Shown one piece after another: positions 33,401 to 49,925 of a DNA stretch of 49,925 bases (position 1 is the stretch's first letter; each line of letters opens with the position of its first letter). The stretch comes from Flavihumibacter sp. (lineage in GTDB: Bacteria > Bacteroidota > Bacteroidia > Chitinophagales > Chitinophagaceae). A model generated the notes under the pieces. The model was not told where the DNA came from. It was given only the letters and a program-made list of their open reading frames with translations, and made no database searches. The stretch spans positions 1 through 49,925 of the forward strand of contig JASGFZ010000001.1 in NCBI GenBank assembly GCA_047605345.1, read 5' to 3'. The translations under genes and the position numbers were made by a program.

Positions 33401-36400
33401 GCTGGTAGGCACGGCCACAGAAGCCTGGCTGATCAGCCAGCGCGAGAACCATGACAGCAAGGCCAAAGCAAACGATCTTCCTTTTGCAAAGCGTTTCGAT
33501 ATCAATAAAGTGAAACCCGGCTTCAGAACCATCGGTTATACCGTACAGGAAAACGACCGGGGCGGTATGGGCTGGACCCATGTATATGTACAGCACAACC
33601 GCGTGTATGTGGCCAACGATCATGTCGCTGTTCCCTGGAACAACAAGCAGCTTTCCCTGGCCGTGTCGAGCTTCCGGGACAAAACGGAGCCCGGCAGCCC
33701 GGAAACCTGGACGGTGACGGTGAAAGGTCCCCAGGGCGAGCAGGCAGCCGCCGAACTATTGACCAGCATGTATGATGCTTCACTGGATCAGTTCACGCCT
33801 CACGGCTGGTCTGTACCCGGCATCTGGCCTCATTACGCTTCGGGCAATACCTGGAATGGCAGTAATAATTTTGAGCAGGAGGCAGGTGAAGGAACCGAGC
33901 CGGAACTGAAGTACACTCCGGTACCGCCCTTGCTGTACGATGCATTGCTGGGTTTAAATATTGGATATGGAGAGATGCTGCGGGGTGCAGCGGGCGGTAT
34001 TATGTATTCCAGAAGGGAAGCCCGTGGTACAATGGTCATGGAATCGGCAATGGCGCCAGCACCGGACGACGCAGGCCTTATGAATGCGAGGAATGCGGCT
34101 CCCAAGATGCAAATGGACAAATTCACGCCGGCTAAAATGGTCAAAGACGAAGAAATGGCCGCCACAGATCCGGCACCTGCCGGCAATGCACCCATTGCCA
34201 CGCGCACCGACTTCCGTGAAACCGCTTTCTTCTTTCCGCAGCTTTCGGCCGATGCCGCCGGCAACTACCAGTTCAGTTTTACCATGCCCGAAGCCCTGAC
34301 CAGCTGGAAATGGCAGCTGCTCGCCCACACCAAAGACCTCGCCTTCGGCACACTCACCCAAACGGTTATCACGCAAAAAGAGCTGATGGTGCAAACCAAT
34401 ATGCCGCGCTTCTTGCGCGAAGGCGACAAGATGGAGATCAGCACCAAGATCGTGAACCTGGGTGATAAGGAAATGACCGGGCAGGCAGAATTACAGCTCA
34501 TCGATCCCGCTAACGATCAACCGGTCGACGGCTGGTTCCGCAACTTCTTTCCCAACCAGTATTTCACTGTGGCGGCGGGCGGCAGCGAAGCCGTGAAATT
34601 CCCGGTAGAAGTGCCCTATCTCTACAACAAAGCGCTTACCTGGCGCATCATAGCACGTTCTGAAAATTACAGCGACGGTGAATCGGCCAGTCTGCCCGTA
34701 CTGACCAACCGTGAGCTGGTCACTGAAACAAAACCGTTCTTCCTCAACGGCAACGGCAGTAAAGACCTGGTTTTGCAGCACCTGGTCAGCAGCGGGAACA
34801 GCGAAACACTGAGCAACCAGTCGCTCACCGTCGAGTTCAGCAGCAATCCTGCCTGGTATGCCGTGCAGGCGCTTCCCTACCTGGCCGACTATCCCTATGC
34901 GTGCGCCGAGCAAACCTTCAACCGTTTGTATGCGACCCTGCTGGCGGCCCATATCGTCAACAAAATGCCGGCCATTAAGCAGGTGCTTGAAAGCTGGAAA
35001 GGCAAAGACACCGCCGCCCTGATCAGCAACCTGCAGAAAAATGCCGAGCTGAAACAAATACTGCTGGAAGAAACACCCTGGGTATTGAACGCCAAAAACG
35101 AAACGGAACAGGAACAAAAGATCGCTGCGCTGTTCAACCTGGTGCAGCTATCGGCCAATACAAGCAAGATCGCCGCGCAACTGAAAGAGATGCAAACGGA
35201 AAGCGGCGGTTTCAGTTGGTTCAAAGGCGGTAGGGATGACCGTTATATTACGCAGTATATTCTAACCGGTATCGGGCGCCTCAAACTGATGGGGGCATTA
35301 CCGGCCGGCCTGAAAGAAATTCCTGCTATTGTTGCTGCCGCGATCCCTTACCTCGATAATGCCATCCGCCAGGATTATGCACTATGGGAAAAAACGCCAA
35401 AGACCGCTGCTGCGTTGAACGAATATGCCGCGCAGTACCTCTATATGCGGAGCTATTTTCCTGAAACCGGTATAGCCGGCGGCACGGTAAAAGCAGCCGA
35501 TTTCTATCGCAAGCAATGCCAGCAACAATGGATCAAAGGCAGCCGGCTGGTACGCGGCATGATCGCCACGATGCTGTTCCGCACCGGTGATAAGGTCACC
35601 GCCGCAAAAGTGTTGCAATCGCTCGCAGAAACCGCTGTGCAAAGCGAAGAGCTCGGCATGTACTGGAAAGACAATAGTCCTGCTTATTACTGGCAGCAGG
35701 CGCCTGTTGAAACCCAGGCCCTGATGATCGAGGCTTTTCAAACCATCAAACCCGGCGGCAAAGAAGTGGCTGCGCTGAAAACCTGGCTGCTGAAAAACAA
35801 GCAGGCCAGTCACTGGCCTTCAACCAAAGCCACCGCCGACGCCTGTTATGCGCTGTTGCTGCAGGGCGGCAACTGGCTGGAAGCGGCGCCCAATGTATCG
35901 GTACAACTGGGTGGTATCACCACCGTAACAGCACGGGGCGCCGAAGCGGGCACCGGTTACTACCAGCAAACCATTCCGGGCACGGGTGTGCATCCTGAAA
36001 TGGGCCGCATCAAAGTGCAGGTAACCAATGCAGCCGCTGCCGGCAAACAGCCGCCGGTTTGGGGCGCCGTGTACTGGCAGTATTTTGAGCAAATGGACAA
36101 GATCGAAGCAGCCGCTTCGCCCCTTTCACTTAACAAGGAAGTGTTTGTAGAAAGGTTGACCGATAACGGACCTACGCTGCAAAAATACACAGACGATATG
36201 CTGCTGAAAGTAGGCGATAAGCTGAAGATCCGTATCACCCTGAAAGCCGATCGCGCCATGGAGTATATTCATGTGAAAGACCTGCGTGCGAGTAACCTGG
36301 AGCCGGTGAATGTGTTAAGTGGCTACCAGTGGCAGGGCGGGCTCGGTTACTACCAGGCGCCGCGAGACGCCAGTATGAATTTCTTCATCAGCTACCTGCC

Positions 36401-36539
36401 GCAGGGAACGTACGTGTTCGAGTATGCGCTTTTCGTGAACCAGGCCGGCACATTCAGCAATGGCATCGCGAAAGCGCAAAGCATGTATGCCCCCGAATTC
36501 AGCAGCCACAGTGAAGCGATGCAATTGAGGGTGGAGTAA
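30462..36539 (+). CDS. Bacterial alpha-2-macroglobulin family protein
   Basis: 2025 aa; LDRSIYRPGQ, FRVEEYKRPKF, RTDFRETAFF, MPEALTSW, PRFLREGD, thioester YPYACAEQ, GGFSWF and QSMYAPE. Confidence 0.95.
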   Translation: MKMNPMRVIGLLLLFVTVNSFAQNMKKTDYTGWWKKIDALINTEGRLKTALAEVKSLQATAVKEGVAGEEVKAMLYRLQIEATVEEGSDTTAIGRLREAVTKSEGIRKALYQSLLADYLKNYYDNHRWQLYDRGTVAGGTKSDITTWSTADFNREISAAYQASLSNKALLQATPAKAIGAMVTNGNAGNTRPTAFDLVAWHALDYFKEAPAETVRSINRFRLSDPALLAPAPVFMQASLNHADSNHQQLIALQVYQELLRFHTRSKNEAALIAADLDRLAFVKDQAIIPHKIQTYRQALETLAKTHPGNADDSRITLAQSLVNDDPSNLAAALQLANALRNSSNPRVKADAHNLTEQIKKPALTLTTEKVNLPEAPFRALVNYANLSTAFFRLYPMTETLRGSLRRGRQLFSEKAWAQISGSKLMKEWQQPLPLPADYREHSTEVKIDGLPIGEYILLAGSDASFAPEKTYMAAVVVRVSNISYINRDRDYFILDRNTGQPLSKASIQTWKEKYDRASQDNILVKGERFIANESGYVHLALATDDNVLLDVNYHNDRLFTDDMVYHYRYRPGQQEQSERKRSNTWFFLDRSIYRPGQLVYFKGIAISSDSSGKSKPYSGQQTTVQLFNANNEAIDSITLKTNAYGSIQGSFRLPEGGLTGSFSLRQKEWNGTAYFRVEEYKRPKFQVALLPVKGSYRVHDTIVVEGTAKAYAGNAISNAGITYRVTRNSRIPFYRHRIWPPYREGSEELINGTAVTGADGRFAIRFTAVPDPSIEKSADPVFDYQIQIDVTDLNGETRSASQYLSVSYKALHVTIGELAAQLPVDSLKTVTVSTRNAGGLFEPAQLKLQLFSLQSPGRLIRARYWQQPDQFAIAENDFRQYFPYDEYKSETDVNSWALNQEVFSSSFLSTAEGQVPLAWKQRSGGWYRIVVTGLDRFGDSIRTEKNIYLIDPKSAAAPSPGFLVTYSSKTSAQPGEKLEWLVGTATEAWLISQRENHDSKAKANDLPFAKRFDINKVKPGFRTIGYTVQENDRGGMGWTHVYVQHNRVYVANDHVAVPWNNKQLSLAVSSFRDKTEPGSPETWTVTVKGPQGEQAAAELLTSMYDASLDQFTPHGWSVPGIWPHYASGNTWNGSNNFEQEAGEGTEPELKYTPVPPLLYDALLGLNIGYGEMLRGAAGGIMYSRREARGTMVMESAMAPAPDDAGLMNARNAAPKMQMDKFTPAKMVKDEEMAATDPAPAGNAPIATRTDFRETAFFFPQLSADAAGNYQFSFTMPEALTSWKWQLLAHTKDLAFGTLTQTVITQKELMVQTNMPRFLREGDKMEISTKIVNLGDKEMTGQAELQLIDPANDQPVDGWFRNFFPNQYFTVAAGGSEAVKFPVEVPYLYNKALTWRIIARSENYSDGESASLPVLTNRELVTETKPFFLNGNGSKDLVLQHLVSSGNSETLSNQSLTVEFSSNPAWYAVQALPYLADYPYACAEQTFNRLYATLLAAHIVNKMPAIKQVLESWKGKDTAALISNLQKNAELKQILLEETPWVLNAKNETEQEQKIAALFNLVQLSANTSKIAAQLKEMQTESGGFSWFKGGRDDRYITQYILTGIGRLKLMGALPAGLKEIPAIVAAAIPYLDNAIRQDYALWEKTPKTAAALNEYAAQYLYMRSYFPETGIAGGTVKAADFYRKQCQQQWIKGSRLVRGMIATMLFRTGDKVTAAKVLQSLAETAVQSEELGMYWKDNSPAYYWQQAPVETQALMIEAFQTIKPGGKEVAALKTWLLKNKQASHWPSTKATADACYALLLQGGNWLEAAPNVSVQLGGITTVTARGAEAGTGYYQQTIPGTGVHPEMGRIKVQVTNAAAAGKQPPVWGAVYWQYFEQMDKIEAAASPLSLNKEVFVERLTDNGPTLQKYTDDMLLKVGDKLKIRITLKADRAMEYIHVKDLRASNLEPVNVLSGYQWQGGLGYYQAPRDASMNFFISYLPQGTYVFEYALFVNQAGTFSNGIAKAQSMYAPEFSSHSEAMQLRVE

Positions 36540-36575
36540 CCAAACAGAAAGAGAAACAACAAACCGGAAAAGAGA

Positions 36576-39197
36576 TCAGGCTTTGATCTCTTTTCCGTCT
36601 ACCATATATTTTGAAACAGGTATGGTTCCCGAAACCACATTCAGCACGGGCCTGCCGCCATTCCAGCGCACCGTTCCGAAGCCGGTGGCGGTAGACAGAA
36701 AACATTCGAAAGCGCCGATGCGCGACTGAACATGCAAGGTTGTATCTACCGCATCATAACGCAAACCGGTAAGCCCCTGCAACATGCCGTAACTGGCCAA
36801 GGCCCGGGCATACCAGTGCCCGCATTCATATTCGTTGAAGGGATTCCGGATACGTCCGTCGTAGCGGTTGCGGCAGGCCTGCACGATATCGAGCCCTTCC
36901 TGTACACGACCCACCAGCATAAGGTGTGAAGCCACCTGGTATTCGATACCCGTCCACACTTCATCGCTGTACACAAAAGGAATGGAAAGCTTTCCGCCCC
37001 GGGGCCAGGAACAGAGCAGCAACCCCCCATCGTGCCCGAGCGCAAAGCCCGGCCGCTGCGGATTATCATGCTGGCTGAGATCTGTTTTCAGGTTGTATTT
37101 ATGCACGGCAAGCAGGTGGCTGGTGATCTTGGTTTGATCAATAAAAGCGGGCAGGCCTGAAACCATTCCGAGCCACGCACCCAATACACCATCGCTCAAA
37201 CAGCCGGTTCCGTACTGGTATTTTGGCCCTTCTTTTTTGAGCAGGGCAATGGCTTCGGGTGAATAGTCGCCGCCGAACGATTGCGCTTTTGAAGGATCGG
37301 GCGCCGAAAGCCCTTCATACTGGATGTGCTGGAAGAAATATTCTCCGTTGTAAAGCTTCTCTTCCATATACCTCACTCCTTTCTGAAGCAGGTCCTGGTA
37401 ACGGCTGTTGTCTTTTTTCAACGCCTTGCCCATTGCCAGCATGGCTGTTAACGCACCCAGGTAAAAACTGGTACACATGCCATCAGGCCCCCAGAATTCA
37501 ATGTCGTACGTATTGTGGTGTGGTTCCTGCACCACGCCGAGCCCGCGCGGATCCCAGGTTTGGATGCAATAGTCCATGCTCTGCTTCACCATCGGGTATA
37601 TCTTCTGCAGCCAGGCAGTATCGGCATTGATCCGCCAGTCGCGGTACACTTTCATGATGCCGCCCAGCTGCCCGTCGGCTGCCGAATGAAAATCGTGCTT
37701 TGCCGGCGAGATCGGGATATTGGCGCGAAAAACCTGGTGGCCGTCTGCCCGCTGGTTCTCGGCGAACTCGGTATTGCGCAAGGTTTTCTCGAGGCGGGGA
37801 AACAAATGCGGTATGGCCTGCGCGTAATTCCATACATGCGTGCAGGAACCGTGACAGGAGCCTTCATCATCACCTGACCCTTCCCAGTTCCACAACCGGC
37901 CGTCGTACTGCCGCATGACCGTGGGCGATTTCAGGATGGTGAGGTTGGCGGCAACGGCTTCTATTACTTCGGAGGGCAATGTGCTGGCATAAAAAGCTTT
38001 CGTAAACGCTTCGGTCTGCTGTTTCAGAGACGAATAATGCTTCAGCCAGTAGGCGGCTACTTCCTGCACGTTCCGGTACCGGCTGCTGTACCAGGGGCGA
38101 TGGGTATCGCCTGTGTTTGCCGGCAGCGTTGGGTCGAGATAGGAAGAATCTTTGGCGCAACCCGCCTGCGGATCACAAGCTGTTTTAGGCACCACCTCGC
38201 CAATACGCAAATTCGAATGGGGCACATACCAGGCAAAATAGAGCCGGATCGTTTTCGATTCGCCGGCGCCCAATGTAAACGGAACATAGAGGCTGGCGCC
38301 GGGCGCATCTTTTTCCACTGGCGGATGGGCCGCCGCTTCGCCATCGCGCACCTTGTTCCAGGCCATCGTCATCGGATCCCACCAGCCACCCCTGAACCAG
38401 CAATGATCCACTTCGGTACGGGGGTCATCGGTGAAGATGGCGAAAGACGCTGTGTCGGGTTTATTGTCCCTGCCCGGTTTCTGTTGCAGGATAAACCCGT
38501 TTGCAATGGGGTCAATGCTATGTGTTTTCTCGGGCCACCACAAAAAGTTTTTGCTGTTATAAGAAAATACCAGCTCTTTTGACGATGAGCCCGTGTTGGT
38601 GAAACGGTATTCGAAAGCCCCGATGGGGTGGCCAGACTCATCTTCCTTACCGGGAACAAAAGGACTCCAGCCGGTCAGCTCAACGCTGACGGGTATAACG
38701 GTATCAAACAACCGAATAATACCAAAGGGAAATTTTGTTTCGAAGCTGGCCTGCGAAAAGCGGGGCAACCCATAGGTGGTTCCAACCGAACCCAGGCCCG
38801 ATCCCCGCATACCAAAGAACTTCCACTCCGGCACCGGCCCTTCCAATACCCTTGCCGTATTCTTCTCTCCTTTTACACAAATCGCCGCGAACATACCCGG
38901 CTCATGGTATATCTCGGGGCGGTTGCGGATGCTCATATGTGAAACAGCGCCCGTTCCTTCCAGGCAAAACATGCCCGCTCCCAGTCCGCCCACCGGAAAA
39001 GCAATCCTGTGCAGGTATTCTTTTTCATAAATACCGTTAAAAGCCCTTGTGCCTTCATGCTTTTCAACAGGCTTTCTTTTCCCGGCACCGGCCGGGGACG
39101 GCGCTGCTTTTTCGCCCGCAGCAGGCGCCACCACGGCCCCGATACCGCCCAGGGTTATATTTCGGAGAAAGCGCCTTCTTTTACTGGAATGACCCAT
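36576..39197 (-). CDS. GH116-family glycoside hydrolase with Tat signal (candidate exo-beta-D-arabinofuranosidase)
   Basis: KRRRFL leader; FPVGGLGAG, WEG...CHGSCTHVWNY, AADGQLG, HHNTYDIEF, YSDEVWTGIEY and NPFNEYECGHWYAR. Confidence 0.88.
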   Translation of the reverse strand: MGHSSKRRRFLRNITLGGIGAVVAPAAGEKAAPSPAGAGKRKPVEKHEGTRAFNGIYEKEYLHRIAFPVGGLGAGMFCLEGTGAVSHMSIRNRPEIYHEPGMFAAICVKGEKNTARVLEGPVPEWKFFGMRGSGLGSVGTTYGLPRFSQASFETKFPFGIIRLFDTVIPVSVELTGWSPFVPGKEDESGHPIGAFEYRFTNTGSSSKELVFSYNSKNFLWWPEKTHSIDPIANGFILQQKPGRDNKPDTASFAIFTDDPRTEVDHCWFRGGWWDPMTMAWNKVRDGEAAAHPPVEKDAPGASLYVPFTLGAGESKTIRLYFAWYVPHSNLRIGEVVPKTACDPQAGCAKDSSYLDPTLPANTGDTHRPWYSSRYRNVQEVAAYWLKHYSSLKQQTEAFTKAFYASTLPSEVIEAVAANLTILKSPTVMRQYDGRLWNWEGSGDDEGSCHGSCTHVWNYAQAIPHLFPRLEKTLRNTEFAENQRADGHQVFRANIPISPAKHDFHSAADGQLGGIMKVYRDWRINADTAWLQKIYPMVKQSMDYCIQTWDPRGLGVVQEPHHNTYDIEFWGPDGMCTSFYLGALTAMLAMGKALKKDNSRYQDLLQKGVRYMEEKLYNGEYFFQHIQYEGLSAPDPSKAQSFGGDYSPEAIALLKKEGPKYQYGTGCLSDGVLGAWLGMVSGLPAFIDQTKITSHLLAVHKYNLKTDLSQHDNPQRPGFALGHDGGLLLCSWPRGGKLSIPFVYSDEVWTGIEYQVASHLMLVGRVQEGLDIVQACRNRYDGRIRNPFNEYECGHWYARALASYGMLQGLTGLRYDAVDTTLHVQSRIGAFECFLSTATGFGTVRWNGGRPVLNVVSGTIPVSKYMVDGKEIKA

Positions 39198-39206
39198 AAA
39201 AATGGT

Positions 39207-40550
39207 TTAATGGTGTTGAAATGAAACAGCGCTTGTTTGGGCCGACTTACTTACACCCCAGATCGCATACCAGGCTATGAAGGCATAGCAGAGCAGCGGT
39301 ATAAAAAAGCCGGTAGCCATTTTAAAATGATCGGCGAAGAGGCCCATCACCGGCGGACAAAAAGCGCCACCCGCCACAGCCATCACCAGGAAAGAAGAAC
39401 CTTTTTTGGTAAGGGTACCGAGGTCTGCAATACCGAGGGCGAAAATGGTCGGGAACATGATCGACATAAAAAAATACGTGCTGAACAATGCTATCACCGA
39501 CAGCCAGCCGGCATCGGCAATAACCAATGCCACCAGGCAAATATTGATGATCGCATAAACGGCCAGCAGCCGGTGCGGTTTGAAAAACTTCATGAACCAG
39601 GAGCCGGTTAAGCGGCCCACCCAAAAAGCGCCCATACCGCCCACCGCGAGAATAACCGATGCCGCCTGCTCATCGTTTTTCGGCATAAACACCTCGCCAA
39701 ACCAGCCGAGGTGCTGCATCATACCCGAAACAGGTTCGCGCAGGTTGGGGATGGCATCGATCACATAATTGATGAAAAAAGAATTGGTACCGGTTTGCGC
39801 CGCCACGTACAGGAACTGCGCAATTACTGCCACCATGAAAGCTGGGTGTTTGAGCAGGTTGCGCATCGGCGGGTCTTCTTCCGTTTCTATTCCTTTTTCC
39901 TCCTTGATCTCGGGCAGTTTGATCAGCATAAAAACAAAGGCAACGGCCACTACCACCGTACCAATACCCATATAAGGGCGTACCAGCGAATGGAATTTTT
40001 CCCCTTCGGCCGCTTCATCAGCGCCAAAGATCATAAGCCCGCCGATCAGCGGCCCCAGTATCCAGCCGAGGCCATTGAACGACTGCGAAATATTGATCCG
40101 CCGCGCCGCCTGGTCTTTCCCGCCCAATACCGTAGAATACGGATTAGCTGCGGTTTCCAGAAAGGCAAGCCCGCAGGCCAGTACAAAAAGGGCCAGCAAA
40201 AAGGGAATGAATTTTTCCAGCTTCGCCGCCGGGTAAAACAGGAATGCGCCGATGGCAAAAAGCGCCAGCCCGAAAATGATACCGCGCTGGTAGCCGTATT
40301 TTTTGATAAACAGCCCGGCGGGAATCGCCATGGCCAGGTAACCGATGTACAGCGAAAACTGTACAAAGCCGCTTTGCGCTTTCGACACCTGCAGCAGGTC
40401 CTGGAAATGCTTGTCGAGCACATCGAGAAAACCATGCGCAAAGCCCCACATTAAAAAGAGGCTGCAGATAAAAACAAAGGGCACCAGGTAACGGACCCCG
40501 TTTTCTCCCGTGAATAAAGAACCTTTTTTAGCAGGCATATCGTCAGGCAT
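39207..40550 (-). CDS. fucP: L-fucose/D-arabinose:H+ symporter (FHS family MFS)
   Basis: SLFLMWGFAHG, GLAFLETAANPY, RINISQSFNGLG, SIMFPTIFAL and LVMAVAGGA. Confidence 0.88.
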   Translation of the reverse strand: MPDDMPAKKGSLFTGENGVRYLVPFVFICSLFLMWGFAHGFLDVLDKHFQDLLQVSKAQSGFVQFSLYIGYLAMAIPAGLFIKKYGYQRGIIFGLALFAIGAFLFYPAAKLEKFIPFLLALFVLACGLAFLETAANPYSTVLGGKDQAARRINISQSFNGLGWILGPLIGGLMIFGADEAAEGEKFHSLVRPYMGIGTVVVAVAFVFMLIKLPEIKEEKGIETEEDPPMRNLLKHPAFMVAVIAQFLYVAAQTGTNSFFINYVIDAIPNLREPVSGMMQHLGWFGEVFMPKNDEQAASVILAVGGMGAFWVGRLTGSWFMKFFKPHRLLAVYAIINICLVALVIADAGWLSVIALFSTYFFMSIMFPTIFALGIADLGTLTKKGSSFLVMAVAGGAFCPPVMGLFADHFKMATGFFIPLLCYAFIAWYAIWGVSKSAQTSAVSFQHH

Positions 40551-40557
40551 TCAATCG

Positions 40558-42315
40558 TTATTTATAAACAGGTCCGTACACATTGCAGGCGCGGAAATCG
40601 GCCCCTTCGGTGTCCATACCGAAGCTTTTCCAGGCCGACGGGCGGAAGATGCGCTCGTCTTCCACGTTGTGCATCGACACGGGTATGCGCAGCAACGACG
40701 CCAGCGTAATCAGCTGGTCGCCGATATGCCCGTAGCTGATGGCGCCGTGATTGGAGCCCCAGCCGGCCATCACACTGTACACATCGCGGAAAGCGCCCTG
40801 CCCTGTCAGCTTCGGCACAAACCAGGTAGTGGGCCAAATAGGATCCGTACGATCGTCGAGTATATTATGCACCTTATCGGGAAGGCCGATGGTTTCGCCT
40901 TCGGCGATCTGCAGCACCGGGCCCAGGCCTTTTACCAGGTTCAGGCGGCACATGGTAACGGGCATGCCGCCGCGCGAAACGAATTTGGAGCTGAAGCCGC
41001 CGCCGCGCATATAATCCACATTCGAGGGATAGAAACGGGTTGCTTCCAGGCAGTCGGACACTTCCTGCTCACTGACCTCCCAAAAGGGTTTCATCACCGG
41101 CTTGCCGCCGGCCGACTGGCAACCGGTTCCGTCAAGTGTAGCCGAACCTGAATTGATCAGGTGCAGGAAGCCGTTGGCGGCGGGCCCCTCAGGCTGCCAG
41201 CCGCTCACCCTTTTCACGGCATCGGGGCTCCAGTAGGTGCGCACATCGGCGAATATCTGCGCCGTATTGGTAAGCAGGTAACCCAGCAACATGCTGGCGC
41301 CGTTCATCGCATCGTTTTCGGTAGCCACCATTACCGGCGGCCGGATGCCGTTCCAATCGAACGACGAGTTCAGCATGGCTTCGGCAAAATCGCCATTGGG
41401 CTGAAAATCGGTCCACTGCCGCTGCCCCTGGAAGCCCGACACAATGGCGTTGTGACCCAGCGCTTCTTCGCCAAAACCTTTTTCTTTCAACTTGTCATTG
41501 CCGAACATCAGGTCGCGAATGATCATGGTCATCTTTGTTACAAAGGCCCATTGTGCGTCTTTCTGTTCGCGGCTGTATTGTTTTTCTTTCGGGTTGAAAT
41601 CCTCCCCTTCCTTGCAATGCCTGCGCACCCAGTCGAGGGCTTTTTCAAATTCGGTTTCGTCGTATATTTTTTTCTCCACGCGCCGCAATATTTCCGACGA
41701 ATCCACATACTCGGTACGCATGCCCAGGTACGACTGGAAGAAATCGTTGTTAACGATGGAACCGGCAATGCCCATGCTTACCGAGCCGATGGCGAGGTAT
41801 GATTTACCCCGCATCATGGCCACAGCCAGTCCCGCACGGGCAAACGACAGCAGCTTTTCCTCCACATCGGCAGGAATGGCTGCATCACCCATGTCCTGCA
41901 CTTCCCGGCCATAAATGCCGAAGGCGGGCAACCCGAACTGGTTGTGCGCGGCCAGCGTGGCAGCGAGGTAAACGGCGCCCGGCCTTTCCGTTCCGTTGAA
42001 TCCCCAGATGGCTTTGGGCCACAGCGGGTTCATGTCCATGGTTTCACTGCCATAACACCAGCAGGGTGTTACCGACAACGAAACCCCTACATTTTCCCTT
42101 TCGAATTTAGCGGCACAATTACTGGCTTCTTTCACGCCGCCAATGCAGGTGTCGGCGATCACGACCTGCACCGGACTGCCGTCGGGATAGCGAAGGGTGT
42201 TCGTGTACAGCGTGGCAACGGCCCGGGCCATATTCATGGTGGTATCTTCGAGCGATTCACGAATGCCGCCGAGGCGACCGTCGATGATGGGTCGGATTCC
42301 TATGCGTGGAAACAT
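40558..42315 (-). CDS. fucI: L-fucose isomerase / D-arabinose isomerase
   Basis: [60 protein letters not shown] and WGSNHG. Confidence 0.97.
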
Positions 42316-42322
42316 ATATTTA

Positions 42323-42355
42323 AGTTTATGGTTTGTCGTTTATGGTTTATGGTTG
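42323..42355. repeat. TGGTTTA-type heptamer tandem repeat overlapping the 3' end of the DUF6786-like gene
   Basis: AGTTTATGGTTTGTCGTTTATGGTTTATGGTT. Confidence 0.7.
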
Positions 42356-43572
42356 GGGATGGCGGAGAGTGATACGCCGAGCAGCTTTTGGGCGATGGCA
42401 TTGAGCTGTTCGGTGCTGCCGGTAAAGTGATAGACATCGTGCCGGTGTTCGATCGACTGGCCGGGCGACAGCGCGGCGGCGGGTGAAACGGATTCTATTT
42501 CGTAAAAGGGGCCCATCTGCGATCCATCGGCCAGCGGGCCATCGTTGTAGGCATTCATGGCGTCGCCGCTGAATACCGGTTTTACCGTATTCCACTCCTG
42601 GTTCAGGTAACGACCCTTGTTATCAACGGTGAAATGGGCGATGGTCAGCACATTGGCCGCTGCATCGTAGCTCCCGGCAAAGGGCAATACCCTTTCGGGA
42701 ACAATACCCAGCTTGCCGCGGCTTTTTCCGTCGGCCTTAAAAAACAGCGCACTATCGGTGATGGTTAACCGATCGGCTGCGATTTCACCAAAATAGTCGG
42801 TGGTGGCTATTTTTCCTTTTTTACCCGGCTTAAAGGGAACGATGATGGTCGTTGCCGGTGAAGGATTGAACATATCCAGTATCCAGATACAGGGCATACC
42901 GCTGGTTTCATTCCAGGCACCTTTGCCTGTATTGGTAAGCGTTTGCCAGGTTTGATAACCCACCAGCCGGATACTGTCGCCGATGCTGACGCCCAATTCT
43001 TTTTCGGCGGTGGCTCTGTCGGTAATGGATATGCGCCGGTTTACTTTCATATCCAGCTGCGCGCCGGTATAATTGGTGAGCTGAATGGTTTTTGAAAGCT
43101 CCACGGAAGCTGCCGACTGGCCGGTTTTTTCCCAGGTTTCGGTATCGATCGACGGATGGGTCTTCCAATGGGCGAATACCATGGAATCGCCTTTCCGGAA
43201 AAAGACGGAGTACTTACCCCCTTCGGGGCCCAGCCAGAAGCGATTCTCACCGCCATAGGCATTCATGTGCTGGTCAACGGGAGCATCGAAAGCCTTGTAG
43301 TTGATCCACCCGAAAGAGGCGCCGTCATCGCCCGCAGCCGCGCTGGTAAACACTTTCGCCTGGTATTTGGGCGATACCAGCACAGCCGCGTCGCCCGATT
43401 GCAACCGCACGAGGTCGCTGTCGTAACGACGCAAAAACTGTTCGTCGTAGCCCAGGCTGCCTTTTGCAAAGACCGGTTTCGTTTCCACTTGTTTTTCTTG
43501 TTTTGGTGCGTTGTTGCAGGAACCGGCCATCAAGGCCGCTATGGTAATTCCCAGCAGGCTGATTTGTTTCAT
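42340..43572 (-). CDS. Uncharacterised lipoprotein, DUF6786-like
   Basis: Lipobox MAGSC; SFGWINY, GGENRFWLGPEGGKYS, YNDGP..DGSQMGPFYEIESVSPA. Confidence 0.75.
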   Translation of the reverse strand: MKQISLLGITIAALMAGSCNNAPKQEKQVETKPVFAKGSLGYDEQFLRRYDSDLVRLQSGDAAVLVSPKYQAKVFTSAAAGDDGASFGWINYKAFDAPVDQHMNAYGGENRFWLGPEGGKYSVFFRKGDSMVFAHWKTHPSIDTETWEKTGQSAASVELSKTIQLTNYTGAQLDMKVNRRISITDRATAEKELGVSIGDSIRLVGYQTWQTLTNTGKGAWNETSGMPCIWILDMFNPSPATTIIVPFKPGKKGKIATTDYFGEIAADRLTITDSALFFKADGKSRGKLGIVPERVLPFAGSYDAAANVLTIAHFTVDNKGRYLNQEWNTVKPVFSGDAMNAYNDGPLADGSQMGPFYEIESVSPAAALSPGQSIEHRHDVYHFTGSTEQLNAIAQKLLGVSLSAIPNHKP

Positions 43573-43595
43573 TTGGCTTCTTTGAATGGATGGCC

Positions 43596-44765
43596 TTAAT
43601 TGACTTCAAGCGCATCTTTTGACGGCAGTGGCGGGAAAGGATTGTGCGGCTCCTTCTGGTACCAGTACGCCACCGTGATGATGTCTGAATGCTGCGGCAG
43701 GTAACGGCCCCCGCTGCGCCAGCCGAGGTCCTGGATGGTCACTTTCAGGTCGCTGTCAAAGCGGATCGGGTCCATAATATGCCAGCGGTACATGCCGAAG
43801 CGCTGCTGCGAACCATAGAGACCGTCGGGACGGGTCACCTGGTGCAGGCCTCTATAGGCAGTGGAAAATTCCTGATAGCGATGCGTGCGCTGGTTTTCGA
43901 AATTATACGAGCCGCAGAAATAATCTTCCGTACCTGTTCCGACAATGGTGGCGTAATCTTTATCGCCGTCCATGAAGAATTTTATTTCTCCCTCACCCCA
44001 CCAGCCGGTATTGGTGGTGCCCAGCCCCATATAAGTACCTACATACTGTCCTTTTCCCTTGATGCCGTCGATAATCGTATGTACGCTCTTGTCGTTGTTC
44101 ACAGCGCTGGAGCGGCGATATTGGGCGTGGAAATAGGCCTCATCGTCGGGTACATCGGTCAGCGTATAATTTACCTGGTAGTATAAACGCATCGGTTCGG
44201 TATCGATGTTCTCCATGGTAATGCGGCATTTTTTGCGGAAGGGCATTTTCCAGTAGCAATTGAAAGCGCTGCCCGGGTTTACCGTTACAGGCAGGCTGTT
44301 CAAGGGTGCATACTGTCCCCAGGCCATGCCGAAGAAAGCCCCTACAGGCGCCTCCACCGAAGGTGTTTTTTCATCGTCCCAATAAAAACGGATGATGCTG
44401 TAATTCCAGTTACCGGTGGGCGTCATCCATATCTGCTGGATGGCGCCGGAGCCTTCTATCTCGGCAATCGTAAATGTTTCCTTGCCGTTGATGATGATAA
44501 AAGGGTTCACTTTCCAGCCCGTACCCAGGTCGCGGGCTTCATTGGCGGCATTCGCTACATTGCGTTTGCCCTTGTCTTTAACAGCGTCGGCCATACCGCC
44601 CTTGCCTTTGCCACCCGAAAAGTTCTCGGGACTGATCGATCTTGTTTTGGCATCTGACACACGCGACAGGTTACCGAGGTTCATATCGAGGCCATTGAAT
44701 TTCTGCTGTGCGAAGGCGGTTCCGGCAAACAGCAAACAGGCAAATAAAAGAAGTCTTCTAAGCAT
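43596..44765 (-). CDS. GH172 (DUF2961) glycoside hydrolase, candidate exo-alpha-D-arabinofuranosidase
   Basis: Signal peptide; TRSISPENFSG.KG.GG, GAIQQIWMT, FNCYWKMPF, WWGEGEIKFFMDGD, GTGTEDYF and YRWHIMDPIRF. Confidence 0.92.
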   Translation of the reverse strand: MLRRLLLFACLLFAGTAFAQQKFNGLDMNLGNLSRVSDAKTRSISPENFSGGKGKGGMADAVKDKGKRNVANAANEARDLGTGWKVNPFIIINGKETFTIAEIEGSGAIQQIWMTPTGNWNYSIIRFYWDDEKTPSVEAPVGAFFGMAWGQYAPLNSLPVTVNPGSAFNCYWKMPFRKKCRITMENIDTEPMRLYYQVNYTLTDVPDDEAYFHAQYRRSSAVNNDKSVHTIIDGIKGKGQYVGTYMGLGTTNTGWWGEGEIKFFMDGDKDYATIVGTGTEDYFCGSYNFENQRTHRYQEFSTAYRGLHQVTRPDGLYGSQQRFGMYRWHIMDPIRFDSDLKVTIQDLGWRSGGRYLPQHSDIITVAYWYQKEPHNPFPPLPSKDALEVN

Positions 44766-44793
44766 AGAAATCGTTTTAGAATGTTTTTAATTA

Positions 44794-44809
44794 GCGCAAA
44801 CGTTTAAGC
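44794..44809. promoter_or_regulatory. LacI-type operator upstream of the GH172-to-GH116 gene run
   Basis: GCgcAAACGTTTaaGC palindrome with central CG, about 30 nt upstream of the GH172 start and next to the lacI gene. Confidence 0.65.
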
Positions 44810-44826
44810 AAACCTTTTAAAAAAAA

Positions 44827-45867
44827 TTATTCACCACAGGAATGTTGCACCACCAGTTTTGCGTCGATCACCAGGTGGGCCGTATCCATTTTCTCTGTAG
44901 TGTTTTTGTCTTTTACCTCCAATTGCTGCATCAGGATGCGTACCGCTTCCTTGCCGATGCGATCGGTACTTTGGTTGATATAGGTTAAGGGGCAATAAAA
45001 GAAATCGAACGCTTCCGTTTCATCAAAACTGATGATGCCAAGGTCATCAGGCACTTTCAGTTTTCTTTTATTGATCTCTTTCAGTCCGTTTATGGCCAGT
45101 GAGTTGGTTGCAAAAAGAAAGGAGTCGGGCCGGTGGTCGGCCTGATCGAGCAGGCGTTGCATGATAGCAGCCACATCGCTGCCGATGTTTTCGTAACTCG
45201 ACTCCATCAAACTGTTTTCATGTACCGGCAGCCCCAGTGATTCCAGCGCTTTCAGAAACCCCTGCTTGCGGTCTTCCATGTGCGGAAGCCTGGTTTTATA
45301 GGCCACCATGGCTATGCGGCGATACCCGCGGCCATGAAGGTGTTTCACTGCCTTGAAAGAAGCCTGGTAGTTATCAATACGAACGGTATTGGCATTAAGG
45401 TCGTTGAAGTACCGGTCGATCAGCACATAGGGAAAGCCCCGGTCAGAAAGCACCTGCAGCTGCGGTGCCGTGTTTTCGGCAGGGGCTATGATCAAACCGT
45501 CTACCTGCCTTTTGATCAGCGTATTGATGAGGGTTTGCGACTTCTCGGCATTTTCGTCAGAGCTGCCGAAGATCACCGTATAATTATTCAGGCTGGCTTC
45601 GTCTTCAATGGTACGGGCAATATTGCTGAAGAACGGGTTGGAGATATCGGCCACGATCAGTCCGATGGTTTTGGTTCGGCCGCTTCGCAGGCTGCGTGCA
45701 ATCAGGTTCGGCTGGTAATTCAATTCACGCGCGGTGCTTCGAACCCGCTCGGCCATTTCCAATCCCACGCGCGCTTCTTTTTCCTTGTTGTTGAGCACAT
45801 AGCTGACCAGCGCAGCCGATACCCCCAGCTTTTTGGCAATGTCTTTTATGGACACTTTTTTCTCCAT
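44827..45867 (-). CDS. LacI-family transcriptional regulator
   Basis: SIKDIAKKLGVSAALVSYVLN HTH, LNYQPNLIARSL, ADISNPFF and VPDDLGIISFD. Confidence 0.96.
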   Translation of the reverse strand: MEKKVSIKDIAKKLGVSAALVSYVLNNKEKEARVGLEMAERVRSTARELNYQPNLIARSLRSGRTKTIGLIVADISNPFFSNIARTIEDEASLNNYTVIFGSSDENAEKSQTLINTLIKRQVDGLIIAPAENTAPQLQVLSDRGFPYVLIDRYFNDLNANTVRIDNYQASFKAVKHLHGRGYRRIAMVAYKTRLPHMEDRKQGFLKALESLGLPVHENSLMESSYENIGSDVAAIMQRLLDQADHRPDSFLFATNSLAINGLKEINKRKLKVPDDLGIISFDETEAFDFFYCPLTYINQSTDRIGKEAVRILMQQLEVKDKNTTEKMDTAHLVIDAKLVVQHSCGE

Positions 45868-45891
45868 TCTTCAAATGTATCAATTACATTT

Positions 45892-46302
45892 TTAGTTGTA
45901 TTGAACTGTTTGCCCCAGCGAATAAATATTGCTGGAATAATTGGGATCGGGATTGATCAACTGCCCGTTGACCTTAACGGTGATGGTATAGGTTTTTTCA
46001 GGATTCGGCACAGCAGCCTCAAAGCTGGTGGGCGCATCAGGCAACATCACCGACGCAACGGTATTTGTTTTCAATCCGATGGTTTCTTTCACCTCTATCA
46101 ATACATTCAGCGGTTGCTGAATTTCGGATGGAACCGTTTTGGGCATGCTCCAGCTCAGGGAAGCCATATTATCCGTTCCCTTGTTCAGCACCAGGTTTTC
46201 CACGCCAGGTAAAAAGAGGTCACGCTTAGGCCGGATGGTTTCTTTCGTGTTGCAGGCCGACAGCAGCAAAACGACCAGTAAAATGATAACACTGTTTTTC
46301 AT
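45892..46302 (-). CDS. Small surface lipoprotein (DUF4945/FN3-like), putative glycan-binding accessory protein
   Basis: Lipobox LLSAC; LPGVENL...LSWSMP beta-sandwich-like pattern; directly downstream of susD. Confidence 0.65.
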   Translation of the reverse strand: MKNSVIILLVVLLLSACNTKETIRPKRDLFLPGVENLVLNKGTDNMASLSWSMPKTVPSEIQQPLNVLIEVKETIGLKTNTVASVMLPDAPTSFEAAVPNPEKTYTITVKVNGQLINPDPNYSSNIYSLGQTVQYN

Positions 46303-46319
46303 CTTGGTTGATTTTTAGG

Positions 46320-48074
46320 TTAATAACCCGGATTCTGCACATACGAACCTTTTGACCAGTTCATTTGCGGTTGCGGTATGGGCAGGTACTCGTCGCGTCC
46401 CGGCAGGAAATGCCCCAGGTTGAACCAGTCGAACCTTGTTTTCTCCTTGTCGATATAGGCATTCATTACCGGCGCGAGCTTGCCCCAGCGAAGCAGGTCG
46501 AAGAAGCGGCGCCCTTCCATGGCCATTTCGAGCCGCGACTCCCACATGAGCGCCTCAAAGGCAAAATCTTTTGTCCAGGTACAGTTCACACCTGGCTGGT
46601 AAAGTGCCAGCTGGAAATTCATCCAGTTACTGCCGTCGGGTTTTTTCAGCCGTGCCGTGCTGTTGGCGGCGCGGGTGCGGATGCGGTTGATGATCGGCAG
46701 CGCTTCATCCTGCCGGTCGAGCTGGATGAGTATTTCGGCCTTCCACAACAGCACTTCGTCGTAACGGATCTCGCGGCGATTCATCGAATTATACGTATAA
46801 AATGGTTTGTAAATACAGTCGCAGTCGGGCGGCACCTGCTCTTTCAGCGAATTGAAGTAGCCATACTGGAAAGGCGCCCTCGATCCTGATTCGTCGAACA
46901 GGAGGTTGTTATCGTATTTCCACGGATAACCCGGAATGCCTACGGTATGCAGAATACGGGGATCAAAGGCATGCGTTTTAAAGAAAGCGACATAGGCATT
47001 GCCGTTCAGATCGGTATTGTTGAAGCCGTTAAAATCAGGCAGTCCGCCGTTATCGGTTTTAAAAGCGTTCACGAGGTTGTGCGATGCCTTGTGAAAATCG
47101 CAGCAGCCATACTTGCCGGCCCACCAGGGAGCATTCAGCTCATTGCCGCGATTGGTTTGCCCGTCAGACCAGTTCTGCGTACCATCACCAATGGAATGCT
47201 GGATTTCCCAAACCGATTCTTTGGTGATATTGTCATATTGCTCCAGGAAGTTATTGGCGAAATCGGGCTCAAGGTCAAACAGCACACCGTCTTTGGCCGT
47301 CAGCACTTCAATATGCTGCAGTGCGCGCTGCAGGGTTTCTTTGTTGATATTGGTCACCTGGTGCGCATCGTTCTGCTCGTAGGCGCGAAACAACAGTGCT
47401 TTGGCGGCAAACGCGTGCGCGGCATACAGGGTAGGACGGCCTTTTTCAGCCTGGGTTTCGGGCAATACAGCAGCGGCGGCTTCAAAGTCGGTAATTATTT
47501 TATCCCACAATTCGAGGTCATTGGCGGTTCCTTCCGGCCGGTTGGAAATGCCTTCCACGATCACCGCGTCGGTGGGCACACTGTCGTCGATCCACGGAAC
47601 ATACTTCCAGCGCAGCTTCATGCCGAAATAGATCCAGCCGCGCAAAAAGCGCATTTCGGCAATACGCTGGTCTTTCAGCGGGAAGTCGGTTGTATTGGAT
47701 TGATTCAGCAGGGTGATGGCGGTATTGGTTCTTCCGATACCGCAATAACCGAGGTACCAGGGGCCATCGTTATTGCCGATATTGGGTGTAACAGCGGTAA
47801 ATATTTCCATTTCGTACCAGGGCGTTTGGTCGTTGAGACCGCCGCCGCCTTTATAGGCATCATCAGAGCGTACGCTTTGGATCCAGGGATTGTGCGTGGT
47901 ACCAAATCCCAGGCCGGGCATAAGAGAATACGCTGCAATAACAAAATTTTCGAGCTGGTCTTTCACCTGGGCTTCCGACAATACCGCTTTGGGCTCTACG
48001 CTGAGCATTTTACTGCAACCCGAACCAAGGGCAGCCAGTGCGAAGGCGATGGGTAAAATATAAGATCGTTTCAT
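46320..48074 (-). CDS. RagB/SusD-family nutrient-binding lipoprotein
   Basis: Lipobox LGSGC; RSDDAYKGG, AEMRFLRGW, IRYDEVLLWKAE, INRIRTRA, ELAMEGRRFFDLLRWG and QNPGY. Confidence 0.96.
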   Translation of the reverse strand: MKRSYILPIAFALAALGSGCSKMLSVEPKAVLSEAQVKDQLENFVIAAYSLMPGLGFGTTHNPWIQSVRSDDAYKGGGGLNDQTPWYEMEIFTAVTPNIGNNDGPWYLGYCGIGRTNTAITLLNQSNTTDFPLKDQRIAEMRFLRGWIYFGMKLRWKYVPWIDDSVPTDAVIVEGISNRPEGTANDLELWDKIITDFEAAAAVLPETQAEKGRPTLYAAHAFAAKALLFRAYEQNDAHQVTNINKETLQRALQHIEVLTAKDGVLFDLEPDFANNFLEQYDNITKESVWEIQHSIGDGTQNWSDGQTNRGNELNAPWWAGKYGCCDFHKASHNLVNAFKTDNGGLPDFNGFNNTDLNGNAYVAFFKTHAFDPRILHTVGIPGYPWKYDNNLLFDESGSRAPFQYGYFNSLKEQVPPDCDCIYKPFYTYNSMNRREIRYDEVLLWKAEILIQLDRQDEALPIINRIRTRAANSTARLKKPDGSNWMNFQLALYQPGVNCTWTKDFAFEALMWESRLEMAMEGRRFFDLLRWGKLAPVMNAYIDKEKTRFDWFNLGHFLPGRDEYLPIPQPQMNWSKGSYVQNPGY

Positions 48075-48086
48075 GACTAACAGACT

Positions 48087-49925
48087 TTAGAAGGTTAGGT
48101 TTACACCGAAATAGGCATTTACAGGAAGCGGATAGTTGAAGCCGGTTTCGGGATCGAGGCCGGTGAACTTGTCGTCTCCCCACGATTTGGTTAAGGTCAT
48201 CAGGTTCTGACCGGAGATATACATGCGGAGCTGTTGTATGCCCAGGCGGCTGATCAGCTTAGGCGGCAGGGTATAACCAATATCTACGGTGCGGAGCTTG
48301 AGGTAAGAGCCGTTTTCGATATAGTACGACGACAATCTTTTTTCACCGTTGGCATCGCCCCTCGACAAGGCCGGGATGGTGGAGTTGGGGTTGTCGGGCG
48401 TCCATGCATCGAGTATGCGCGAAGGGTGGTTGCGGTCGTTCTGTACAGAGATGTTCCAGAAATCGCTCAGCTCTTTCCAGTTGTTGTATATCTGGTTGCC
48501 GAATACACCCTGGAAGAAAACGGTGATATCGAAGTTTTTGTAACGGGCTTCGAAATTCAGGCCGGCCGCCAGGCGGGGGTCCCAAACGCCGATCCAGGCC
48601 CTGTCGTACAATTCACTTACCGTACCGTCGCCATCCAGGTCGCGGTAACGGATGCGGCCGAGCCCCTTGCCGTTTTGCGCTGCGTAATCATCCACTTCCT
48701 TTTGCGTGCGGAACAAACCGTCTGCCACCAGGCCATAATAAGAGTGCAGGGGCCGGCCTTCGATATAATCCAGCAGGCCATTGCCGCCATAAGCATATTT
48801 TACGTTTTCAGGCACTTTACCTACCCTGTTTTTAAAGGCCGATAAATTGGTGGTAATGGTGTATGAAAAATCTTTTTTGCTTTCGCCCCAGCTGAGCAAC
48901 AGCTCAAAACCTTTGTTGTTCATATCGGCGGCATTGACCCAGCGGTAGCCGCCTTCACCGAGGGCTGCTATATAGGGCGGTTCGAACAGCATGCCGAATG
49001 TTTTTTTGTTGAACCAGTCGAATGAACCACGCAGGCGGTTGGTCAGCAGGCTGAAGTCGACGCCCAGGTTGAGCTGTTCGGTGGTTTCCCATTTCAGGTC
49101 AGGGTTGCCCAGGCTCGCGCGGCGGTAGCCCGAGGGAATATTGGTGGAAGATCCGTCGATGGGATAAGAAGTGCCGCCCAGGTCGGTGGTATAAATATTC
49201 ACCAGCTTGCCGGCGCTGAGCGGCGCCGAGTTACCGTTTTGTCCCCAGCTGGCCCGCAGCTTGAGATCGGATACAAAACCCACGTCTTTCATGAATTTTT
49301 CGTCGCTGATGCGCCAGCCGGCAGAAACAGCGGGGAAGGTTCCGTAGCGGTTATTGGCGCCGAATACCGAAGCGCCATCGCGCCGCATGGTAAGGCTCAG
49401 CAGGTATTTGGCATCAAAAGCATAGTTGATCTTGCCGAAATAGGAAAACAGGCGCACTTCGCTGCCGCCGCCGTTCAGTGTATAGGAAGTGCTTGACGTG
49501 GTGGCATTGAGGTAACCGTAGTCGCGGTTTTCCAGCAATACGTTTTGCCGGTAGCCTTTCAGGTCTTCGGTAATAAACGAATAAGATTCCACGCCGGCAA
49601 CCGCATCCACTTTGTGCTGGCCGAGGTTCAGGTTATAGGTCAGCGTGTTGGTCCAGGTACGGCCCAGGTTCTGCCAGGTATTCTGCGTAACACCGTTTAC
49701 ATCGCTGCTTTTGCCGCCTGCCTCCGCCCATTTTTTCTGGATGATGCGTTCGTACCACATGCTGTAGTCCACACCGTATTGCGTGCGAAGCGCCAGGTTG
49801 TCGAGTATCTTGAGGTTGGCATAGGCCGAGCCCAGCACCTTCATGAAATTGGGTACATTGTCGGCATTCATACGCAGGTCGCGGATCGGGTTATTGTAGT
49901 CGTCCATGCCGAGCTTCATCGCCAC
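48087..49925 (-). CDS. SusC/RagA TonB-dependent transporter (5' part outside the window)
   Basis: RRDGASVFG..NRYGTFPAVSAGWRIS.E.F, NPDLKWETT, YRDLDGDG, ENGSYLKLR and C-terminal GVNLTF. Confidence 0.96.
   Translation of the reverse strand: MAMKLGMDDYNNPIRDLRMNADNVPNFMKVLGSAYANLKILDNLALRTQYGVDYSMWYERIIQKKWAEAGGKSSDVNGVTQNTWQNLGRTWTNTLTYNLNLGQHKVDAVAGVESYSFITEDLKGYRQNVLLENRDYGYLNATTSSTSYTLNGGGSEVRLFSYFGKINYAFDAKYLLSLTMRRDGASVFGANNRYGTFPAVSAGWRISDEKFMKDVGFVSDLKLRASWGQNGNSAPLSAGKLVNIYTTDLGGTSYPIDGSSTNIPSGYRRASLGNPDLKWETTEQLNLGVDFSLLTNRLRGSFDWFNKKTFGMLFEPPYIAALGEGGYRWVNAADMNNKGFELLLSWGESKKDFSYTITTNLSAFKNRVGKVPENVKYAYGGNGLLDYIEGRPLHSYYGLVADGLFRTQKEVDDYAAQNGKGLGRIRYRDLDGDGTVSELYDRAWIGVWDPRLAAGLNFEARYKNFDITVFFQGVFGNQIYNNWKELSDFWNISVQNDRNHPSRILDAWTPDNPNSTIPALSRGDANGEKRLSSYYIENGSYLKLRTVDIGYTLPPKLISRLGIQQLRMYISGQNLMTLTKSWGDDKFTGLDPETGFNYPLPVNAYFGVNLTF

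Follow-up and report, generated by a model that had tools for sequence, protein, structure and literature searches.

Nine co-oriented genes at 36576-49925 of a 49,925-nucleotide contig of Flavihumibacter sp. (JASGFZ010000001.1; this whole stretch is called the window below) form a locus that probably imports oligosaccharides of D-arabinofuranose (D-Araf), most likely fragments of Mycobacteriales arabinogalactan (AG) or lipoarabinomannan (LAM) that were cut by others, and would use a pair of exo-enzymes to degrade these to D-arabinose. All nine open reading frames (ORFs) lie on the minus strand, and Pfam/NCBIfam searches identify them in order as susC' (truncated), susD, DUF4945, lacI, GH172, DUF6786, fucI, fucP, and GH116. 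The D-arabinofuranoside chemistry, as predicted from the encoded proteins, is very likely, and a Mycobacteriales source of the sugar is likely. Our evidence consists of gene content, orthology, residue conservation, co-occurrence with other genes, and a predicted fold; what the enzymes do, where in the cell they act, and from which ecological source the sugar comes are inferred from it. The locus is predicted to work like PUL42 of Dysgonomonas gadei, a published Bacteroidota polysaccharide utilization locus (PUL) for D-arabinan whose core genes are the same (Al-Jourani et al. 2023, PMC10115798; PMC10509167; Ross et al., bioRxiv 10.64898/2026.08.13.744632). The locus type is already known, and the present example is mostly explained by published work.

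In the proposed pathway, SusC and SusD would import a D-Araf oligosaccharide, a periplasmic GH116 enzyme would remove beta-Araf caps, and GH172 would remove alpha-1,5- and alpha-1,3-linked Araf. The DUF6786 lipoprotein may then speed the conversion of furanose anomers into the ring form taken by FucP and FucI, which is the least certain step and is put forward tentatively. FucP would take up D-arabinose, and FucI would turn it into D-ribulose. The ribulokinase would be encoded outside the locus and is probably AraB, from the L-arabinose operon; its product, D-ribulose-5-phosphate, would enter the pentose phosphate pathway. Repression would be exerted by LacI at a site before GH172.

Two predicted exo-enzymes of D-arabinofuranosidase type

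Among structures in the PDB, the GH172 protein matches ExoMA1 best (8IC8, 373.5 bits), followed by Dg79 (136 bits) and alphaFFase1 (7V1V, 117 bits). Residue N288 pairs with Asn253 of ExoMA1, a position that is Gly in alphaFFase1, and Asn253 excludes fructofuranosides (PMC10509167). By motif and spacing, W255, E258, and E280 match W239, E242, and E264 of Dg67, with the catalytic Glu pair 22 residues apart. Dg67 cleaves alpha-1,5 and alpha-1,3 links and does not cleave difructose dianhydride I (DFA I) (bioRxiv 10.64898/2026.08.13.744632). A quick tree of 53 rows, which did not include ExoMA1, places the protein in a 36-row clade with the Dg67 type rather than with Dg79 or Dg71 (support of 99 in the Shimodaira-Hasegawa-like approximate likelihood ratio test, SH-aLRT); the Dg79-type anchor was picked by similarity and not by a named record. 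By eye, the protein carries a signal peptide. At the sequence level, these features agree with the exo-alpha-D-arabinofuranosidase proposed in the first-pass annotation, and the Asn at the fructose-excluding position argues against an enzyme that acts only on difructose dianhydride.

For the GH116 protein, the sole strong match in the PDB is ExoMA2 (8IC6, E-value 7e-100; 338 bits with phmmer). The next match is a glucosylceramidase (E-value 1.5e-4, 23 bits), and no bacterial beta-glucosidase structure was matched in this search. Glu431 and Asp557 of ExoMA2 are its catalytic nucleophile and acid/base, and Arg483 and His446, which replace His507 and Asp452 of the beta-glucosidase TxGH116, form the key difference between these two enzymes (PMC10509167). 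Residues E439, H454, R491, and D565 pair with ExoMA2 residues E431, H446, R483, and D557, all four at one constant numbering offset (+4). All 44 full-length locus homologues with more than 50% identity carry the three motifs that bear these residues, and none of 11 distant ones has the complete set. A FastTree phylogeny, from which ExoMA2 and sequences of subfamilies 1-3 were absent, groups the protein with the D. gadei 02468-type protein (support 100); PMC10509167 reports a putative GH116 gene in the D. gadei cluster and places the GH116 candidates of such clusters in subfamily 4. Its N-terminus resembles a twin-arginine signal by eye. The best structure match and the four residues support the predicted exo-beta-D-arabinofuranosidase type and, at the sequence level, speak against a protein that is only a beta-glucosidase or xylosidase. 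A second, distant GH116 gene (G000:C232:727-2260), which has 32-36% identity to a module GH116 and is apparently in pieces, lies near a GH29 fragment.

Alternative sugars, sources, and modes of attack

Annotation pipelines would mislabel the locus as fucose uptake plus glucosylceramidase, and the corresponding routine reading, L-fucose uptake and isomerization beside a beta-glucosidase or glucosylceramidase and a difructose-dianhydride enzyme, deserves consideration. Both FucI and FucP score above the cut-offs of the L-fucose equivalog models. Permease and enzymes can be shared between L-fucose and D-arabinose in other bacteria (PMC6946681), so some fucose flux through FucP and FucI is possible. 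The first-pass annotation had noted that no GH29 or GH95 fucosidase was visible, which holds for the locus and fails for the genome, where other contigs have five GH29 matches and one GH95 match. Within the visible locus, Pfam and NCBIfam searches found no fuculokinase, fuculose-phosphate aldolase, fucose mutarotase, or fucosidase. We also surveyed the best 80 of 444 genome loci with DUF6786, using flanks of 10 kb. The genes that co-occur are fucI (42 loci), GH172 (41), fucP (40), lacI (35), FGGY kinase (30), and GH116 (18), whereas fucosidases are rare (GH29 in two loci, GH95 in none). Two module kinases of relatives were tested, and both pass the ribulokinase cut-off with no fuculokinase model listed. 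Together with the Arg/His pair that separates ExoMA2 from TxGH116 and the Asn of GH172, these data make the L-fucose reading very improbable. The D-arabinose reading is well supported, and FucI and FucP most likely serve D-arabinose, as had been proposed.

FucU and class II aldolases were also sought in the assembly and not found, which is weak evidence. The absence of FucA carries no information, since araD, which was lost in a gap, was likewise missed by that search. We rejected the absence of FucA and ribulokinase as evidence, because the two closest relatives have their sole ribulokinase in araB-araD-araA, and the gene immediately before this operon has an orthologue here that is truncated where contig C92 ends. 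The araB gene of the present genome probably lies in the gap after this contig, and Escherichia coli AraB accepts D-ribulose (bioRxiv 10.64898/2026.07.27.741123). Some loci (L017, L019, L037, L219, and L127) have UxaA-like, FAH, or SDR genes with DUF6786 and GH172 instead of fucI and a kinase, which suggests an oxidative D-arabinose route. An SDR and UxaA-like pair occurs in the genome studied here, on contig C311. A flavin adenine dinucleotide (FAD) oxidase with a D-arabinono-1,4-lactone oxidase (ALO) domain is encoded at 13437-14771 of the window, 22 kb from the locus and beside a GH130-like gene.

The first-pass annotation spoke of an enzyme set for D-arabinan. The GH172/GH116 exo pair, together with a transporter and a regulator, supports this description, but GH183 (DUF4185) endo-enzymes were not found in the assembly, and most complete relatives that have this transporter and module lack a full-length one. 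A Pfam search of the assembly gave no DUF4185 match, although no control genome gave one in that search either, and a custom GH183 profile run against all six frames found nothing (best E-value 0.07). We also examined the 14 best of 52 SusD matches among 400 genomes of the family. GH172 and DUF6786 lie beside the transporter in 12 of these 14 genomes; one has GH183 there instead, and one is without any module gene. Full-length DUF4185/GH183 is present in two, partial matches occur in eight, and four have none. Thus, the exo-only layout is usual in related genomes, which suggests oligosaccharide scavenging, and most Chitinophagaceae with the module have exo-enzymes only. GH183 was found in one of the 80 DUF6786 loci, a count for which 82 unlabelled ORFs were scanned with Pfam and all were covered by the custom profile. 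With intact LAM, ExoMA1 was inactive and ExoMA2 removed caps (PMC10509167). An exo-only, apparently periplasmic pair behind SusC and SusD best fits the import of ready-made fragments.

Several observations weigh against the proposed pathway. No ribulokinase orthologue was found in the assembly. The SusD match to PUL42 SusD (41.6% identity) covers the N-terminal 267 amino acids only. In a second survey, which took 75 metagenome loci with the D. gadei DUF6786 protein as anchor, GH183 is present in 10 to 11. Flanks of 10 kb undercount GH183, and probably miss it even in PUL42, because it lies there 11-12 genes from DUF6786. Since susC is interrupted by the contig end and part of the genome is unassembled, an endo-enzyme may be missing from the data. 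Finally, a partial DUF4185-like lipoprotein is encoded in a separate locus in five of five complete congeners with the module, compared with two of 12 complete relatives without it; because kin are not independent, this co-occurrence is only a lead.

Some of these points bear on the possibility that, as in D. gadei, arabinan polymer is attacked directly by the organism as a primary degrader, with GH183 or an unrecognised endo-enzyme upstream of susC or in the unassembled part of the genome, or with DUF6786 cutting the chains. In addition to the contig break in susC, the L-arabinose operon was demonstrably lost in another gap, and GH183 directly follows this SusD type in G556 and L056 and lies ~24 kb away in G467. 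The DUF6786 lipoprotein has conserved acidic residues, and some glycosidases and lyases share its fold at lower Z. Yet no full-length DUF4185 was found in 12 of the 14 genomes of the SusD survey, the three closest SusD loci have unrelated genes, or GH116 and other module genes, upstream of susC, the custom profile was blank, and DUF6786 is found also in loci without a glycosidase. We therefore regard primary degradation as unlikely. About as unlikely is a source of D-Araf glycans outside the Mycobacteriales, such as Gram-negative pilin or lipopolysaccharide (LPS) oligosaccharides or an undescribed environmental glycan. D-Araf is found on pili in Pseudomonas aeruginosa PA7 and also in some LPS (PMC10115798), and the pilin glycan is a substrate of Dg67. 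No endo-enzyme is required for short glycans, neither GH172 nor GH116 lies in the flank of 14 loci with fucI, and the module occurs in many Flavobacteriaceae of marine genera. However, the pairing of beta-Araf and alpha-Araf enzymes fits the capped termini of AG and LAM, and both characterised loci with a GH172 and GH116 pair act on these polymers (PMC10115798; Shimokawa et al. 2023, PMC10509167).

We rejected the partial DUF4185 proteins of congeners as GH183, because only about one third of the model is covered, the alignment is poor at the nucleophile motif, and three of four contexts are near GH92-like genes away from the module. Examples of these lipoproteins (L108:1294-2505, L117:239-1444, and L121:10781-11977) weakly match EndoMA1 (E-value 1.3e-6). 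They lie near GH92-like genes in separate PULs, each of which is possibly a LAM or mannan locus.

Three other gene families accompany the module in related loci. Proteins of about 354-400 amino acids without a Pfam match (L044:7601-8728, L135:1053-2114, L219:16474-17571, and L221:16379-17497) are encoded next to this SusD type or to GH172 genes. They occur in nine of the 80 genome loci and in 11 of the 75 metagenome loci, including beside a copy of PUL42, and are candidates for an unrecognised D-arabinan enzyme; no member was found in the genome studied here. A family of ~700 amino acids, also without a Pfam match (L135:10143-12236 and L076:3095-5287, in the position of D. gadei 02470), is present in 36 of the 75 metagenome loci, usually beside DUF6786 and GH172. 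A CobW-family GTPase adjoins ExoMA2-type GH116 in nine of the 80 loci (for example L031:14356-15435, L080:19076-20146, and L229:2640-3704), sometimes with a small protein that resembles SlyD by eye.

If D-Araf oligosaccharides are indeed the substrate, D-arabinofuranoside use is no longer confined to a single gut species and a few actinobacteria and extends to many Bacteroidota of the environment, most of which lack an endo-enzyme. This exo-only pattern points to cross-feeding on actinobacterial walls or to a D-Araf source that is not yet known. The locus also provides a Bacteroidota GH116 enzyme with predicted activity on beta-Araf caps, which would be useful in LAM and AG analysis. According to PMC10509167, cap removal was not found in the D. 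gadei study.

A lipoprotein with a predicted mutarotase-like fold

The gene first labelled DUF6786-like encodes a true member of this family (PF20583), whose fold is confidently predicted to be the beta-supersandwich of aldose 1-epimerase (galactose mutarotase, GalM). A model built from a 131-sequence alignment has a predicted local distance difference test score (pLDDT) of 96.9, compared with 38 for a single-sequence fold. Aldose 1-epimerase-like proteins rank first in a Foldseek search with this model (3NRE, E-value 4.5e-12). VIA-align gives Z 21.7 for 3TY1 (root-mean-square deviation, rmsd, 3.5; 276 residues aligned), Z 21.8 for 3K25 (rmsd 3.0, 252 aligned), and Z 16.8 for Lactococcus lactis GalM (1L7J; rmsd 3.7, 263 aligned). 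In a wide structure search, the top 18 rows almost all belong to the aldose 1-epimerase family, and Z is at most 15.3 below rank 18. Although the match to this fold (3TY1, 3K25, 3NRE, YeaD 2HTA, and 1L7J) spans the whole domain, the DUF6786 protein differs from the GalM family in its low identity (8-15%) and lipoprotein signal, and several of the best matches are themselves putative epimerases. Sequence comparisons found PF20583 only and no PF01263 match, nothing meaningful in the PDB, and only DUF6786 clusters in the Atlas.

A shared fold does not establish function. DUF6786 occurs with the isomerase route, with an apparent oxidative route (SDR, UxaA-like, FAH, and aldehyde dehydrogenase genes), and sometimes without a glycosidase, a pattern that fits a step on the free sugar. 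Of nine long homologues that were scanned, two carry a GH172 fusion, for which both orders occur, one an SDR fusion, and one a fusion with a GH43-like domain. The D. gadei orthologue 02469 (F5IZF2, 416 amino acids) is abundant on D-arabinan (34 peptides), in a proteome that has no glucose control. FucP and FucI probably accept the pyranose form. Retaining enzymes release furanose anomers (PMC10509167), which suggests ring-form conversion as the role of DUF6786. The conserved polar residues include R111, R179, D281, K287, N343, E358, E360, H376, and H382. E360 is conserved in 128 of 131 sequences and, as judged by eye, may equal the catalytic Glu of GalM; the conserved His residues (H376 and H382) are elsewhere.

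Other results disfavour a mutarotase. Profile comparison with 14 GalM-family proteins gave no match (hhalign probability 0.8%), and by eye the protein has YGGE where GalM has HGG, with no obvious second catalytic His. None of the counted pathway genes is present in 17 of the 80 DUF6786 loci. On balance, a mutarotase is a plausible assignment that we hold with somewhat less than even confidence; a binding lipoprotein is possible though doubtful, and a hydrolase or lyase is unlikely. More speculatively, DUF6786 could represent an undescribed family of membrane-anchored D-arabinose mutarotases without the GalM histidines that marks the D-arabinose module of soil, sludge, and marine Bacteroidota, whose carriers would be cross-feeders on Mycobacteriales arabinan fragments or on an undescribed D-Araf glycan. 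Either way, a testable function can now be offered for an abundant but unstudied PUL42 protein. Our literature search on DUF6786, whose reach largely excluded subscription journals, found no publication, and titles listed for D-arabinose mutarotases in Bacteroid- taxa included none on this family.

Gene layout, regulation, and comparison with known systems

Features of the locus are listed in Table 1. Intergenic gaps from susC' to GH116 are 12, 17, 24, 61, 23, 24, 7, and 9 bp, which bears out the co-oriented nine-gene order with very short gaps described in the first-pass annotation. This arrangement is not due to chance, because dozens of Bacteroidota genomes contain this module. In G584, which is a single contig, the order is almost identical (susC-susD-GH172-lacI-DUF6786-fucI-fucP-GH116); the cluster is without a kinase, and DUF4185 has no match in this genome. 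Among 250 sampled genomes of the class, DUF6786 is present in seven, GH172 in nine, and both in six. A DUF4945 gene follows the closest SusD homologues in L080, L216, L217, and L219, and the DUF4945 lipoprotein is likely a surface accessory of the SusC/SusD pair.

Table 1. Coordinates of the locus and adjoining features in the window
Feature	Position	Strand	Evidence
SusC TonB-dependent transporter, C-terminal 612 aa	48087..49925	-	TIGR04056; 51% to PUL42-type SusC of L135
SusD lipoprotein, 584 aa	46320..48074	-	PF07980/PF14322; 41.6% over 267 aa to L135 SusD
DUF4945 small lipoprotein, 136 aa	45892..46302	-	PF16303
LacI-family repressor	44827..45867	-	PF00356/PF13377; 42% to 333-aa LacI of L135
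Putative LacI operator, upstream of GH172	44792..44811	.	imperfect palindrome around AAACGTTT
GH172 (DUF2961), predicted exo-alpha-D-arabinofuranosidase, ExoMA1/Dg67 type	43596..44765	-	W255, E258, E280, N288; 67.7% to L135 Dg67-type
DUF6786 lipoprotein, predicted mutarotase-like fold	42340..43572	-	PF20583, 517 bits; 48% to D. gadei F5IZF2/HMPREF9455_02469
FucI L-fucose/D-arabinose isomerase	40558..42315	-	TIGR01089, NF008220 over cut-off; 71.5% to L135 FucI
FucP-family permease of the major facilitator superfamily (MFS)	39207..40550	-	TIGR00885 over cut-off; 47.5% to L135 FucP
GH116, ExoMA2 (subfamily 4) type, predicted exo-beta-D-arabinofuranosidase	36576..39197	-	8IC6, E-value 7e-100; E439, H454, R491, D565; 59.6% to L135 GH116
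14-pair hairpin, likely terminator, overlaps GH116 end	36565..36597	-	longest stem of 18 hairpin sites found; 19.8 expected by chance
Alpha-2-macroglobulin (bacterial), 2025 aa, convergent with GH116	30462-36539		Pfam

The 5' part of susC is missing because the window is the whole of its contig (C1), which ends inside this gene. The 5' half was not found on other contigs (best matches 28-37% identity). The assembly comprises 3.06 Mb, with a marker-based completeness of 82.6%, whereas congeners at 96% completeness or above have 4.0-5.7 Mb; among named homologues, the nearest belong to Flavihumibacter and other Chitinophagaceae. Elsewhere in the window (8778-12120 and 22790-25122), two overlapping ORFs make up secA and the malic enzyme/phosphotransacetylase region is fragmented, probably through assembly frameshifts.

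A palindrome of the TAAWCGWTT type occurs within 200 nucleotides after lacI in 25 of 34 loci, compared with 38 of 933 other gene ends. The copy in the window is imperfect and falls below the threshold of our position weight matrix (PWM). Stronger sites exist elsewhere in the genome, one of them beside another lacI gene, which shows that the motif is shared beyond this regulon, and a PWM scan for further operator sites revealed no new regulon member. A scan for sigma-70 promoters performed at chance level (11 found, 11.8 expected).

Comparison with PUL42 relied on a near-copy of that locus (L135) and on P0155, against which identities were measured. L135, a metagenome locus, encodes a protein with 98% identity to D. 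gadei 02469, and its LacI, GH172, and GH116 lengths equal those of 02465 (333 amino acids), 02467 (386), and 02468 (859) in the D. gadei proteome, which also lists DUF4185 (02481) and ribulokinase (02482) proteins. Eight genes of the window have orthologues in this near-copy with 41-72% identity (Table 1; 47-48% for DUF6786). Unlike PUL42, which has three GH172 genes, the locus has one, and its gene order differs and its host is Chitinophagaceae-like; the visible part also lacks the GH183 pair, ribulokinase, second SusC/SusD-sized pair, and 698-amino-acid 02470-type gene of PUL42. With GH183 and the kinase out of view, the locus is a candidate for full membership in the PUL42 type. A search on PULs with GH172 and GH116 in Bacteroidota, going by titles and with subscription journals largely outside its reach, listed no description of this variant.

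L-fucose operons have the arrangement fucP-fucI-fucK-fucU-fucA. They share FucP and FucI with the locus in the window, which is without FucK, FucU, and FucA and has LacI, and whose relatives have a linked ribulokinase. Another close parallel is the Microbacterium arabinogalactanolyticum cluster (Shimokawa et al. 2023, PMC10509167; 8IC8 and 8IC6), which likewise combines a GH172 and GH116 exo pair, in which the tested residues are kept, with an isomerase route. However, M. arabinogalactanolyticum uses an ABC transporter, cytoplasmic exo-enzymes, four DUF4185 genes, and a kinase, whereas the locus described here has SusC and SusD and apparently exported enzymes.

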